Part shown: piece by piece, positions 23,178 to 29,739 of the stretch
Position numbering within the stretch: position 1 is the stretch's first letter
Layout: each line of letters begins with the position of its first letter
Source: a virus
Direction: 5' to 3' (one strand)
Length of the DNA: 64,000 nucleotides
Virus record (IMG/VR): IMGVR_UViG_3300033145_001546
Coordinates: 13,256 to 77,255 of that record
Translations under genes and position numbers: made by a program
The notes under the pieces: generated by a model
Seen by the model: only the letters and a program-made list of their open reading frames with translations
The model's database searches: none
What the model was told of the DNA's origin: nothing

Positions 23178-24251
23178 GTGAAAAATAAATCTACAACACG
23201 GACGTATGGTGCTGCAGTAAGTGTGCGAGGGGACTGTTTGTACTGTCCTCTTCCTTTAAGTATTGACTCATATTTCAATTGCCTAACCGATTGTCACCAT
23301 TGTTATTCACGCCGATTAAACCGCACGTGGGGCACAGACCTTAGACCTGCCGACCCGGAACAAGTGCGAAAGAAACTTGAAAATGGATTGAAAAATAAAA
23401 ATCCCCGGTCATCATTGGCTTGGGCTTTGAGACATAAGAAAACCTTGCGATTAGGCAACCGCACTGATCCATACCAAGATGCAGAAATGGAACATGAAGT
23501 TACTCGTAGGATTCTCAGACATTTGATTGATTTGGAGTGGACCTTTGTTATTCAAACTAAATTCTTAAACAACATGACACGGGATTGGGAACTGTTACAA
23601 GAGGCGGCAAAGAAGGAACTGCTAATTGTCATGCCTATCATAACGCCGGGGGGCTCATACGATTGGAAGGTGTTGGAAAGAAAGAGGACTTCATCCATTG
23701 CTACCAGATTAAACATTATCCGCCAAATGATAGATGCTGGTTGGCACGTGGGGGTGAATGGAGAGCCTTTCATTCCCGGACTTCATACCATACATCAATT
23801 CCAAAAGATAATAAGACGATTGAAAGAGGTCGGGGTGTGTAGTTATAATACCTATAATCTCCACCTCAATGACTACGTGGCCAAGCAGTTGCATTCTATC
23901 GGATTAGACATCGAGAAAATATGGACGATGAATCAGGATAAGAACTGGGCCCCAATTCAAAAGGAACTCTGTTGCATAGCCCAACAGGAAGGAATGATTT
24001 TAGGATGCCCTGATTTCGTCAATACTGGACCGGATTGGAGGGAACGAACTAACACGTGTTGTGGCATCCGGGTCCCAAATCCGTCCAAGTTCAATACCCA
24101 TACTTGGAAACGACGATTGCAACGGGGGAAACCTGCCAACAGAGTTTTGAGAGGGACGTGGGAGGGGATAGGAGATAAGGAATTAGGCAAAAAGATAGTC
24201 AAGGGTGTGCCTTGCGATAATTATACGATGAAAGACGCAGGAATGATTTGA
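23178..24251 (+). CDS. Radical SAM protein A (spore-photoproduct-lyase-like)
   Basis: CLTDCHHC (CxxxCxxC), RLGNRTDPYQ, IQTK, EPFIPG; likely GTG start 23178. Confidence 0.85.
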   Translation: MKNKSTTRTYGAAVSVRGDCLYCPLPLSIDSYFNCLTDCHHCYSRRLNRTWGTDLRPADPEQVRKKLENGLKNKNPRSSLAWALRHKKTLRLGNRTDPYQDAEMEHEVTRRILRHLIDLEWTFVIQTKFLNNMTRDWELLQEAAKKELLIVMPIITPGGSYDWKVLERKRTSSIATRLNIIRQMIDAGWHVGVNGEPFIPGLHTIHQFQKIIRRLKEVGVCSYNTYNLHLNDYVAKQLHSIGLDIEKIWTMNQDKNWAPIQKELCCIAQQEGMILGCPDFVNTGPDWRERTNTCCGIRVPNPSKFNTHTWKRRLQRGKPANRVLRGTWEGIGDKELGKKIVKGVPCDNYTMKDAGMI

Positions 24252-25111
24252 TAAGAAAAAATACTCCAATTGAAACTTACGATGTCCGGGGAAGGACGGT
24301 GTATGTTAAAAGGGAGGACCTGTGCACTGAGCCTCCAGGTCCCCCTTTTAGCAAATGCCGGGGGCTGTATGCCAAATTGAAAAAGATGCGGGACGAGGGC
24401 GTGGAAGTAGTTGGTTATGTAGAGACCCCAATTTCGATGGCGGGCTGGGGTGTGGCGTGGATAGCAAAAAAATTAGGTTTGAAAGCTGTAATCTTTGATC
24501 CACAATACCTCCACACACCCCCCGCCACCATTTTGATACATAGAGAAAAGTGGAAACAATACAACCCTGATATTATCCCCATTACAGCTGGAATGACCTG
24601 TGTGAATCAGCACATTGCAAAGAAGATGCTGAAAAAAGAGTATGGACGGAAAGCTGTGATGCTTCCTATCGGCATCCCTTTTCAAGAGACAATAGAGGAA
24701 ACGAGCAAAGAATTTCTGCGACTCGTAGGAAAAAAACCATGGTTATTTCTTAAGCATATTGTGGTTTGTGTGGGGTCCGGAACGATTTGTTCCGGGCTGT
24801 TGAAAGCCCTGCAAGGAATAGGAGGAGATATAGAATTGATAGGGGTGATGGCCTACGATAAAAATATGAGGAAGAAAAGGAAGTCTATTTTCATCAAAGC
24901 TGGGGCGAAGGACCAAGGCACCCTTTTCCCCTCCAAAGTAGATTTCAGATTAGTAAATGAGAAATGGGAATACACCGAATCGTCAACTGTTGACTGCCCT
25001 TTCCCTTGTCATGCTTACTACGACTTGAAAGCATGGGAATGGCTGGTGAAGAATATTCACACTTTGAAAGGGACAGTACTGTTTTGGAATATAGGGAGTG
25101 AAGCAGTGTGA
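24248..25111 (+). CDS. PLP-dependent enzyme, fold type II (ACC deaminase/D-Cys desulfhydrase-like)
   Basis: TPIE...VYVKREDL...SK.RG, VCVGSGT, YDLKAW, LFWNIG. Confidence 0.8.
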   Translation: MIRKNTPIETYDVRGRTVYVKREDLCTEPPGPPFSKCRGLYAKLKKMRDEGVEVVGYVETPISMAGWGVAWIAKKLGLKAVIFDPQYLHTPPATILIHREKWKQYNPDIIPITAGMTCVNQHIAKKMLKKEYGRKAVMLPIGIPFQETIEETSKEFLRLVGKKPWLFLKHIVVCVGSGTICSGLLKALQGIGGDIELIGVMAYDKNMRKKRKSIFIKAGAKDQGTLFPSKVDFRLVNEKWEYTESSTVDCPFPCHAYYDLKAWEWLVKNIHTLKGTVLFWNIGSEAV

Positions 25112-26346
25112 GTTATTATGACCTGAGAGCCGAAGTTGCTAAAATCATACCCCGTGTGCAATCTCTACGCACTAAGAAGCAGGCCCCCAAGCCTGTAAAG
25201 GAAAAGGGACGCAAAAGTGGGTACTCCGAATTCAAGCTCAATGTTGGAAATTGGGTAAAGCAAGAGCGATTGTTGAACACACAAGAGGTTAATTCCTTTG
25301 TCGAGGTAAGTTGTAGGGCCGCAGCCTGTCCCATGCCATTGAATTTGGATGTATGGGATGGGCTGCTTTGTGTTGCAAAGGGACAAATGATAACTACTCA
25401 GAGAGGTGAAAAAAGAATCGAGGACGTAAAAGTCGGAGACATGGTATTATCCTTTAATGAGTCTTCTAAAATTTTGGAATGGAAGGAAGTCATCCAAACA
25501 AATTCGACAATCAAAAGAAATATGATAGACATCGAAACGGAAAAAGGAATTCTGACAGTAACAGCGGACCACCCTGTTTATACTCAAAGGGGATGGATTG
25601 GGGCGGGGGACTTAAAAGAAACTGATTATATTTACGAGCAAGCCAAAAAAATACCTTGGAACAAAGGAATCCCCAGAACTCTAAAGGAAAAAAAGAACAT
25701 CAGTAGTGGTATATCTAAAGAATCCCGAATGAAAAGCTCCAAGCGAATGAAACATCTTTGGAAAAAGGGAAAATACAAAGATCATGTGGGGAAAACTAAT
25801 CCATCTAAAAGGCCCGAAGTTGCTCGTAAAATAGGGGAAGCTAACCACAGAAGAAAAGTGACCGAAGTTACGAGAGAAAAGATAAGACAAAGTAAATTGG
25901 GAAAACCTGGTCCTGCTGTTTCGGAAAAGACTAAAAAATTATATTCCGAAAGAATGAAACGGGACAATCCTATGCATAGAAAGGAAGTATTAGAAAATCA
26001 TCCCGTATTAAAGACGGGCAGATATTACATATCTCAGGGAGAGAAAACTTTATCAATCTTATTTCAAAAAATGAAATTGAAATATAAGCACCAAAAACAA
26101 ATGGCGAAAGAGATTGGTTATTACACAGTTGATTTTTTCTTTCCTAAATATAATAAGATCATAGAATTCGACGGACATCAAAGTCATAGAGAGCATCCCG
26201 AAAAGGACGAAAAAAGGGATGCTTATATAAAAAAACGCTATGGATACACTACTTTGAGGATAGTTCCAATGGAATTAAATAATACGAATCGACCTAAATT
26301 GCTCTCCAAAATAAGGAATTTTCTGGATGGAGTTGAAGAGGCTTAA
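25108..26346 (+). CDS. Radical SAM B N-extein + N-intein + NUMOD3/Vsr(DUF559)-like endonuclease
   Basis: Extein ...CPMPLNLDVWDGLL, then intein block A CVAKGQMI and block B TADHP; basic NUMOD-like repeats; VDFFFP...IIEFDG...D.KRD. Confidence 0.85.
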   Translation: MSYYDLRAEVAKIIPRVQSLRTKKQAPKPVKEKGRKSGYSEFKLNVGNWVKQERLLNTQEVNSFVEVSCRAAACPMPLNLDVWDGLLCVAKGQMITTQRGEKRIEDVKVGDMVLSFNESSKILEWKEVIQTNSTIKRNMIDIETEKGILTVTADHPVYTQRGWIGAGDLKETDYIYEQAKKIPWNKGIPRTLKEKKNISSGISKESRMKSSKRMKHLWKKGKYKDHVGKTNPSKRPEVARKIGEANHRRKVTEVTREKIRQSKLGKPGPAVSEKTKKLYSERMKRDNPMHRKEVLENHPVLKTGRYYISQGEKTLSILFQKMKLKYKHQKQMAKEIGYYTVDFFFPKYNKIIEFDGHQSHREHPEKDEKRDAYIKKRYGYTTLRIVPMELNNTNRPKLLSKIRNFLDGVEEA

Positions 26347-28832: not shown

Positions 28833-28844
28833 AAGGGTAATAAT

Positions 28845-29006
28845 ATGGCTGGTGGTAAGAGTAGAAAAAGTGGTGGTGTGAGTAAGGCCTTAATAAATAG
28901 ATTAGTTGGAAAGAAAACCGGAAATGGAAGATCCAAGACTGACAAAAGAGGACTATTGGGAAGCAGTAAAAAATCAAAATCTGATGCCAAACTTCTGGAT
29001 GACTGA
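28845..29006 (+). CDS. Small basic Gly/Lys/Ser-rich peptide (53 aa)
   Basis: Manual translation MAGGKSRKSGGVSKALINRL...; AGAAGGGT RBS; overlaps the next gene. Confidence 0.55.
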   Translation: MAGGKSRKSGGVSKALINRLVGKKTGNGRSKTDKRGLLGSSKKSKSDAKLLDD

Positions 29007-29739
29007 CGAGTATATCGAAAAGGCCGGTTTGATTTGGCATGAAGATGAAGAGACCAAATACTGTGGGTGGTTGCATCCTGAATACAATACTGAGATATGC
29101 CCAAAACATTCGGAGTGGATGTTCCCGCCTATGACTTATAAAAGACATTTTGTCCTAATGGGGAATGTCTACTCCGGCTTTCCCAAAAATCCATGTATGA
29201 ATTATGAAAGCAATGAAGAATTCTTAGACTATCAATATATTTACAACCCTGTAGATTTTATGTTTTTGGCGGGGCATAAATGGAAAGCATTTAGAAAAAT
29301 CCTCCGACAATATCGTGAGAGAGTAGATGGAAAGCAGAAATACATGAAAATAGCTTCAGATACTTTCCAAGATGCTATTGCTAAATTGCTTCTGAAGTGG
29401 GCAGGGGAAAAGGAATTTTTCGATAATGAGGTGATGATAAAGTATGCCTTAGAGGGAGAGAACAGGTGGGGGATGTTCACAGATGAAAAATTGGTAGGAT
29501 TGAATATCTGGGACGAGAATTTCATGTTTGTCAACTATCGATACTGTATAGATGATGGCACCCCCGGTCTCAATAGATATTTGCGGTACCATTTTTATAC
29601 TCAAGGGGCAATTCCGAGCAAACAAAAACTTATCAATGACGGCGGTTCGCTGGGGGACGAAGGATTAAGAGAATTTAAGTTGAGACTAAATCCTCATGTC
29701 GTATACACAGTAACATCTTATAAACAAGAGAAACCATGA
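28906..29739 (+). CDS. DUF2156/MprF-C-like (GNAT-fold) aminoacyl-tRNA-dependent transferase
   Basis: DYQYIY..DF..LAGHKWKAFR and INDGGSLGDEGLREFKLRLNP match DUF2156 signatures; no membrane domain. Confidence 0.65.
   Translation: MERKPEMEDPRLTKEDYWEAVKNQNLMPNFWMTDEYIEKAGLIWHEDEETKYCGWLHPEYNTEICPKHSEWMFPPMTYKRHFVLMGNVYSGFPKNPCMNYESNEEFLDYQYIYNPVDFMFLAGHKWKAFRKILRQYRERVDGKQKYMKIASDTFQDAIAKLLLKWAGEKEFFDNEVMIKYALEGENRWGMFTDEKLVGLNIWDENFMFVNYRYCIDDGTPGLNRYLRYHFYTQGAIPSKQKLINDGGSLGDEGLREFKLRLNPHVVYTVTSYKQEKP

Follow-up and report, generated by a model that had tools for sequence, protein, structure and literature searches.

Paired radical SAM enzymes, a PCNA-like protein and a predicted DUF2156-like transferase in a candidate DNA hypermodification module of phages

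Does a set of enzyme genes within the replication operon of a virus genome modify DNA and, if so, by which entry chemistry? The question is raised by positions 23178-29739 of the window, i.e. the whole 64,000-nucleotide stretch analysed here, itself a part (positions 13,256 to 77,255) of the 77,255-bp IMG/VR virus record IMGVR_UViG_3300033145_001546 (100% complete according to CheckV). An earlier note on this DNA had listed two radical S-adenosylmethionine (SAM) proteins, rSAM-A and rSAM-B, a pyridoxal-phosphate (PLP) enzyme, a 238-aa protein (p238) and a DUF2156-like transferase. All these open reading frames (ORFs) are present and, like all module ORFs, lie on the + strand; missing from the list were the PCNA-like nature of p238, an ORF for a 53-aa micropeptide and a gene of the 3'-phosphoadenosine-5'-phosphosulfate (PAPS) reductase family. 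The core of the module consists of rSAM-A, rSAM-B, the PCNA-like protein, the basic micropeptide and the DUF2156-like protein. The DNA hypermodification pathway proposed in the note, related to that of phage M6 and entered by a different chemistry, is very likely real, given a homologue of M6 gp52, radical SAM proteins of the M6 gp53 superfamily and no known entry enzymes. In its more specific form, the reading that we consider probable on balance is post-replicative hypermodification of a DNA base, most likely thymidine, in which an amino-acid (glycine-like) conjugate is made through a new front end.

Conserved core and variable tailoring slot

Related loci were collected from IMG/VR with the PLP gene (27 loci) and the DUF2156-like gene (80 loci) as anchors, and the counts of co-occurrence were based on 49 non-redundant loci that have 8 kb or more of upstream sequence. 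rSAM-B, p238, the micropeptide and the DUF2156-like protein are present in 49/49 loci each, rSAM-A in 43. The six loci without rSAM-A all possess an interrupted rSAM-B, hence their flank may be too short. The module is always situated between helicase and DnaN-like clamp genes. It is an undescribed and widespread gene set of hundreds of metagenome clusters (640 in the rSAM-A family, and 269 at 50% identity in the DUF2156-like family at E ≤ 1e-30). The GenBank phage collection contains no match for the 8.7-kb region, for rSAM-A or for the DUF2156-like protein, and two weak partial hits for rSAM-B. No description of the module was found in the literature, and no paper that connects the modification of phage DNA with DUF2156, aminoacyl-tRNA or a PCNA-like protein.

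The fold-type II PLP enzyme (24248..25111) matches Pfam PALP and phrog_7093 (3e-46) and is 33% identical to M6 gp52 over 99% of its length (E 3e-42); cellular fold-II enzymes match it at E 8e-6 or weaker. Its 67 phage matches are distributed over six genera (Pseudomonas 53, Bordetella 9, and four others), the top ones listed all being Pseudomonas phages. A proposed catalytic lysine (K36) and the motifs GSGT and FWNIG are invariant in 18 module PLP enzymes and gp52. By homology the protein is a PLP decarboxylase of the gp52 type, with a predicted activity. In M6, purified gp52 decarboxylates C-alpha-glycinylthymidine in DNA (Lee et al. 2021, PMC8989533), and the adjoining gp53 is a glycinyl-thymine isomerase, a radical SAM enzyme similar to spore photoproduct lyase (SPL) (PMC8989533).

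The PLP gene is found in 24 of the 49 loci and is therefore an optional tailoring enzyme, not a part of the core pathway as the earlier note had it. The slot between rSAM-A and rSAM-B varies among relatives: it holds the PLP enzyme alone, two class-I methyltransferase-like proteins plus the PLP enzyme, an Amidoligase_2 protein, a 232-aa protein with no assigned function, a DAO-type flavoenzyme plus an aldo/keto reductase, or DNA methyltransferases. In PLP-less variants (e.g. locus L051) the DAO-type enzyme, dependent on flavin adenine dinucleotide (FAD), is 32% identical over 93% of its length to gp47 of phage PaMx11; its 20 phage matches fall into four genera (Pseudomonas 17), with PaMx11 among the 12 matches listed. 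PaMx11 gp47 is a flavin-dependent lyase acting on N-alpha-glycinylthymidine in DNA (PMC8989533). DNA is read as the target because two alternative tailoring enzymes resemble gp52 and gp47, both proven on glycine-thymidine conjugates in polymeric DNA, and these two homologies are the strongest argument for it. The SPL-like radical SAM proteins, the PCNA-like core protein, the position in a replisome operon and the DNA methyltransferases of the slot agree with a DNA target. The same locus holds, besides these methyltransferases and the Amidoligase_2 protein, a TET-associated glycosyltransferase in one relative.

Several variants of the module are observed singly. At L051 4429-6320 the gp47-like DAO flavoenzyme is paired with the aldo/keto reductase, which suggests that the same intermediate is tailored from amine to keto to hydroxy. 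The module of L017 contains a third radical SAM protein of 486 aa (14366-15823), that of L109 an RtcB RNA ligase (6942-8117) and that of L011 the Amidoligase_2 protein (9927-10841). An ORF family of 133-142 aa lacking a Pfam match occurs at varying positions of the module (L008 2193-2591, L018 13905-14306, L027 9019-9444, and others), in the manner of a mobile gene.

All phage DNA hypermodifications with amino acids known to us start from 5-hydroxymethyl-deoxyuridine (5-hmdU), a DNA kinase and an amino acid:DNA transferase. When the complete genome is searched in six frames at E ≤ 1, no match appears for ADDT (aGPT-Pplase2, PF18724), for HMUDK (PF18748) and its helical domain (PF18723), for the thymidylate-synthase family (PF00303) and ThyX (PF02511), or for TET/JBP and amidoligase. 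The same searches detect HMUDK and ADDT in phage M6, taken as a positive control. The absence of kinase and aGPT-Pplase, formerly remarked for the stretch around the module, extends to the whole genome. Thymidylate synthase and HMUDK are also not found in the complete relatives G001 and G003.

The pathway of M6 (Yuavirus) to 5-(2-aminoethyl)-deoxyuridine (5-NedU) comprises the dUMP hydroxymethylase gp58, the 5-hmdU DNA kinase gp54/gp55, the transferase gp51, the isomerase gp53 and the decarboxylase gp52 (PMC8989533). The module resembles it in the full-length gp52 homologue with its catalytic lysine, in the adjoining radical SAM proteins of the gp53 superfamily and in its situation among phage replication and nucleotide genes. 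It differs from M6 in that its genome lacks hydroxymethylase, kinase and amino acid:DNA transferase, in that it has two radical SAM paralogues instead of one, and in that its core adds a PCNA-like protein, a micropeptide and a tandem-GNAT DUF2156-like enzyme, the PLP enzyme being optional. The pathway of PaMx11 to 5-aminomethyl-dU and 5-acetylaminomethyl-dU consists of the transferase gp46, the lyase gp47, the acetyltransferase gp48 and the kinase gp49. Here the likeness is confined to the gp47 homologue of the PLP-less variants; the window has the PLP variant, gp46 and gp49 lack a counterpart, and the flavoenzyme of the relatives is paired with an aldo/keto reductase.

Radical SAM paralogues and the split intein of rSAM-B

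rSAM-A (23178..24251; CLTDCHHC, Pfam Radical_SAM) and rSAM-B are SPL-like radical SAM proteins of the COG1533 type. The paralogy formerly noticed from their common motifs is confirmed by hhalign (probability 97.4, E 1e-11, 271 columns), whose alignment spans the N-terminal CP.P, the CxxxCxxC and the C-terminal CC. CLTDCHHC is invariant in 18 orthologues and CPFGCKYC in 17, and both proteins match Pfam PF04055. The best curated NCBIfam matches belong to the COG1533 group (PA0069, Rv2578c, mobile-pair B and SPL), and the scores lie far from those of any curated subfamily: 16 bits against a cut-off of 437 for TIGR03886, 73 against 360 for PA0069, 58 against 430 for Rv2578c and 34 against 410 for mobile pair B. 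A PDB sequence search with the rSAM-A profile found nothing. Compared with M6 gp53 over approximately 250 columns, the rSAM-A family reaches an hhalign probability of 95.5 (E 1.4e-8) and the rSAM-B family one of 90.6; the pairwise E-values are weak (7e-4 and 2e-4). According to these profile comparisons the two proteins belong to the same superfamily as gp53. With the SPL/COG1533 relatives (PA0069, Rv2578c, 'radical SAM mobile pair') they have in common the CxxxCxxC radical SAM core and the best NCBIfam models, in contrast to which they possess extra invariant cysteines (CP.P, CC) and occur as paired paralogues specific to the module group.

Source annotations name the radical SAM proteins 'DNA repair photolyase', and one might accordingly regard them as repair lyases beside unrelated genes, or let the enzymes of the module act on a free nucleotide or on tRNA or other RNA, for which the tRNA-binding relatives of DUF2156 and the RtcB gene in the module of one variant could also be quoted. 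The strict co-occurrence in 49/49 loci, however, argues for one pathway. A transferase and a tailoring slot for PLP or FAD enzymes would be superfluous in repair, polymeric DNA is the substrate of the homologues gp52 and gp47, and a PCNA-like protein in the core speaks for duplex DNA; such roles are thus very unlikely.

For the proposed hypermodification of DNA, rSAM-B has to be an intact enzyme, and in the window its gene is broken. The 87-aa N-extein (25108..25368), with invariant EKGRK..Y and ACPMP, is followed by the N-half of an intein, which starts with Cys and continues in frame into a DUF559/Vsr-like homing endonuclease that ends at a stop codon (25369..26346). The second ORF (26327-27586) lies in a different frame and begins, with its own ATG, 20 nucleotides before the stop of the first (25108-26346). 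It encodes the 40-aa C-half of the intein (26327..26446), ending in VLVHN, and the C-extein (26447..27586), which starts with the +1 Cys of CPFGCKYC and contains the SPL-like radical SAM core and the C-terminal CC. The intein is inserted at the first Cys of CxxxCxxC. Hint N and C blocks, Cys1, terminal His-Asn, +1 Cys and halves in separate ORFs, i.e. the hallmarks of a split intein, are all present. In 17 distinct sequences checked among the first 29 loci rSAM-B is uninterrupted, with the exteins abutting exactly at the break; in the wider non-redundant set the gene is uninterrupted in 39/49 loci and interrupted in 10/49. At the same site, L016 has an in-frame, contiguous mini-intein of ~144 aa (7079-7897) and L025 a split form of three ORFs with a free-standing endonuclease (6616-8135). 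Because the exteins abut exactly there in relatives, and because of the L016 and L025 forms, the break is a genuine naturally split intein and not an assembly error, with trans-splicing predicted from the sequence. The earlier statement that CPFGCKYC arises after splicing stands insofar as the uninterrupted gene of relatives joins exactly at this point, but the intein is split and not contiguous.

The site is thus found in four states: empty, with a contiguous mini-intein (L016), with a three-ORF split form (L025) and with the fusion of N-half and endonuclease (window). Fractured genes with split inteins and free-standing homing endonucleases have reportedly been described before. The division of rSAM-B into two ORFs with intein halves corresponds to them, L025 being the classic three-ORF form; unlike them, the window has an N-half fused in frame to the endonuclease, and the site lies at the first radical SAM Cys. 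The halves of rSAM-B would need to be joined by protein trans-splicing before they function. An intein-containing subfamily of Rv2578c exists (NF038136). The invariant EKGRK..Y of the N-extein (25108-25368) is loosely like the GGKSRKSGG of the micropeptide.

Predicted transferase, micropeptide and PCNA-like protein

The remaining core proteins distinguish the module from the known pathways. The 238-aa protein p238 (27974..28690), left without a function in the earlier note, is now predicted to be PCNA-like. Neither Pfam nor PHROG contains a sequence family matching it, a PDB profile search gives chance-level hits only, and hhalign found no relation to the 332-aa DnaN-like clamp of the same genome. 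AlphaFold2 models of p238 and of the DUF2156-like protein were built from 16-sequence alignments. The p238 model (pLDDT, i.e. predicted local distance difference test, 85.5) has PCNA structures in all top 50 Foldseek positions (E ~1e-9 to 3e-8, template modelling (TM) score 0.5-0.6), and in this model p238 is a two-domain clamp protein of PCNA-like fold. A three-copy model reaches an interface score (ipSAE) of 0.69, the best of three controls having 0.00, which may reflect the memory of PCNA in the model; among proteins of solved structure, 20 of 30 one-chain pairs and 1 of 23 single chains attain this ipSAE mark. The modelled trimer is arranged head-to-tail, with strands 84-96 pairing with 157-166, and its runs have at least 93% contact agreement and a partner pLDDT of at least 81.

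The DUF2156-like protein (28906..29739, with an uncertain start at TTG 28906 or ATG 28924) had been described as a soluble GNAT transferase resembling DUF2156 and the C-domain of MprF. In fold this description is borne out: the model (pLDDT 86.6) has as its top Foldseek match the DUF2156 structure 2HQY (E 7.5e-11, TM 0.66), followed by alanyl-/lysyl-phosphatidylglycerol synthases (aaPGS), MprF, the aminoacyl-tRNA-dependent peptide synthases Sbb17/Sba18 and FemX, and ordinary tandem-GNAT acetyltransferases rank below these aminoacyl-tRNA-dependent transferases. In sequence it is not, since DUF2156 (PF09924) scores 18.0 bits at a Pfam cut-off of 27.5. The family profile matches 2HQY by sequence at E 3e-3, with the common motif [DE]YIY...G.K[WF]..[FA]R. 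According to the model, the protein is thus a tandem GNAT of the DUF2156 type and a predicted aminoacyl-tRNA-dependent transferase. All members of its family that were listed are stand-alone proteins of ~230-310 aa. The predicted tandem GNAT fold and the 2HQY motif recur in the aaPGS/MprF C-domain, FemX and Sbb17/Sba18, from which the module protein differs in being soluble, ~260 aa long, found in phages only and below the cut-off in its Pfam score. No member of the aaPGS/MprF, FemX or Sbb17/Sba18 families was found tied to DNA modification in the literature. Mom of phage Mu, which the earlier note had drawn on as a parallel, has no relative among the module proteins, neither sequence nor fold giving evidence of a likeness.

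Directly upstream of the transferase gene, and overlapping its start, lies the gene of the 53-aa micropeptide (28845..29006). Relatives all carry an ORF of 37-79 aa between the p238 and transferase genes, which has a good ribosome-binding site and likewise overlaps the transferase start. The N-terminus of the peptide is nearly invariant, MGGKSRK.G..S..L[IV]..[LI], in the window M(A)GGKSRK.G..S..LI..L; the middle is variable and Lys/Gly/Ser-rich (a Lys/Ser-rich linker in the window), its net charge lying between +4 and +13, and the C-end is a short hydrophobic-acidic motif, e.g. LLDE, PLFD, GLL or GLDLD. The window micropeptide ends in ...SDAKLLDD, and a 439-aa N6/N4 DNA methyltransferase encoded downstream (31747-33066) in ...KKNRRLLDE. 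Both LLD[DE] tails follow a basic linker, and their sequences suggest a common clamp-docking tail. A second protein with the C-terminal tail of the micropeptide is not found in five relatives; the methyltransferase of the window genome alone shares it.

With this peptide, the direct transfer of an amino acid from aminoacyl-tRNA to DNA, as previously proposed, is not supported, the invariant micropeptide encoded upstream of and overlapping the transferase being an equally good acceptor. The module could even be centred on the peptide, like pathways to ribosomally synthesised and post-translationally modified peptides (RiPPs), to pearlins or on carrier peptides: the GNAT enzyme would aminoacylate the micropeptide, and the radical SAM and tailoring enzymes would remodel the added residue, and the outcome would be a DNA-binding peptide in modified form or a small molecule set free, rather than a modified base. 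The position of the micropeptide gene in all loci examined, its near-invariant N-terminus, fold relatives such as FemX and Sbb17 that aminoacylate amines of peptides or small molecules, and a swappable tailoring slot typical of natural-product clusters would fit such a pathway. We nevertheless judge it distinctly unlikely. The two identifiable tailoring enzymes are specific homologues of enzymes acting on DNA-borne glycine, the radical SAM proteins belong to the DNA-acting SPL superfamily, a PCNA-like ring is part of the core, and the locus lies inside a replisome operon, interspersed with DNA methyltransferases. Moreover, no protease or export gene is seen, and the relative G006 has the transferase without the micropeptide. 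Of the parts of RiPP or PEARL pathways, a conserved small peptide is present in the module, and no match to LanB-like or RRE families is seen in Pfam, PHROG and NCBIfam scans of its proteins.

Genomic surroundings and the proposed pathway

The module is flanked 5' by a DnaD-like/DnaB-like gene pair and 3' by clamp, uracil-DNA glycosylase (UDG)-exonuclease and PolA genes. Its boundary is the DnaN-like sliding clamp (332 aa, 30648..31646, + strand), whose gene adjoins the DUF2156-like gene in relatives. In the window an accessory gene is placed between the two, a PP-loop protein of the PAPS reductase family (29736..30614, + strand; phrog_424), which is the sole PADLOC match, to BrxP, and is found elsewhere in L085 only, among ~100 related loci. 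The neighbours formerly given as clamp, methyltransferase and UDG-PolA are hence correct as to the clamp, but the PAPS reductase gene precedes it, and UDG is fused to a 3'-5' exonuclease, with the PolA domain in a separate ORF. A variable insert between rSAM-B and p238, an ORF of 128 aa with no assigned function (27591..27977), is common only to the contig behind L002. Other early genes have replication, recombination and transcription functions only, according to Pfam scans. Just upstream of rSAM-A, a Lys-rich protein of 182 aa without family match (22524-23072) keeps its position in 25 related loci. The early region furthermore contains a MoxR-type AAA ATPase paired with a DUF2201 metallopeptidase/VWA-like protein (13130-15337).

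A zone of ~3 kb nearly free of CA/TG (8000-11250), enriched in CG, lies next to the terminase genes in the divergent early region. The earlier note had explained it by a dinucleotide specificity of the module. The zone is real: most 250-bp windows in 8251-11000 contain 0-4 CA+TG and three contain 6 to 11, where ~30 are expected, and over 1 kb the observed/expected ratio falls as low as 0.02. Its link to the module and the dinucleotide specificity find no support. The relatives G003 (complete, with terminal repeats), G005, G002 and G004 possess the module and no such zone, CA/TG not being the most depleted dinucleotide in any of them, and G001, the closest relative (complete), has just a weak dip (observed/expected 0.33) beside its terminase. 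Since the zone does not track the module, a causal link from module to zone is not supported, and the zone as a consequence of the module is rejected on this comparison. A direct transfer from aminoacyl-tRNA to DNA at CA/TG, with the modification as the cause of the zone, could appeal to the zone itself, to the dip of G001 at the equivalent place and to SPL, the substrate of which is a dinucleotide. Against it are the four relatives named above, the micropeptide as a different acceptor and the possibility that the zone relates to genome-specific genes (the PAPS reductase, the 439-aa methyltransferase) or to a restriction system of the host, so that we regard it as highly improbable.

For the hypermodification pathway with a new front end, the data at hand are gene content, homologies and predicted folds, from which we infer donor, acceptor, base, linkage and order of steps. 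The DUF2156-like enzyme would move an aminoacyl group from charged tRNA to an amine, probably on the micropeptide as a carrier arm, or to a DNA adduct. The micropeptide and the enzymes would ride the PCNA-like ring. The two SPL-like radical SAM proteins would form the bond between amino acid and base by radical chemistry on DNA, a route that would replace hydroxymethylation, phosphorylation and displacement. Where the gp52-like PLP enzyme is present, as in the window, it would trim the conjugate, probably by decarboxylation, to an aminoalkyl base similar to 5-(2-aminoethyl)-dU. As a detailed version, put forward tentatively and as a whole rather doubtful, the module may be an assembly line: the tandem-GNAT enzyme would load glycine or another amino acid from aminoacyl-tRNA onto a Lys-rich carrier micropeptide, whose C-tail would sit on the PCNA-like ring, and the radical SAM pair would graft the residue directly onto the methyl group of unmodified thymine in duplex DNA, without passing through hydroxymethyl-dU.

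Several points weigh against the hypermodification reading. The DUF2156 assignment by sequence falls below the Pfam cut-off, and the case for aminoacyl-tRNA as the donor comes solely from the nearest neighbours of a predicted fold. The kinship of the radical SAM proteins to gp53 is at superfamily level only, the cellular PA0069 and Rv2578c models scoring higher. The invariant micropeptide could be the true substrate. A decarboxylation of the gp52 type needs a free carboxylate, which an aminoacyl adduct linked through its carboxyl group does not have; the link to the carrier would have to be cleaved first, or the PLP enzyme would perform other chemistry. In G006 (87% complete) the DUF2156-like gene is retained and the radical SAM proteins, the PCNA-like protein and the micropeptide are missing; the same locus (L088 4710-7843) has the TET-associated glycosyltransferase (PF20691, 5e-40), with no TET. 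Finally, the search of the GenBank phage collection revealed no cultured phage with the module.

If the pathway is as proposed, the module keeps the back-end tailoring enzymes of known phage pathways and swaps the whole front end for parts never tied to DNA modification. Charged tRNA would then be seen for the first time to supply a DNA modification pathway, modified bases would be reached by a radical route that is new, and the modification machinery would have a sliding clamp to itself; should the assembly line be true, the reaction would amount to C-H functionalisation of a canonical base. A family of this size, with hundreds of metagenome clusters, could explain much unseen DNA chemistry in uncultured phages, with possible consequences for restriction resistance, sequencing artefacts and the discovery of enzymes.

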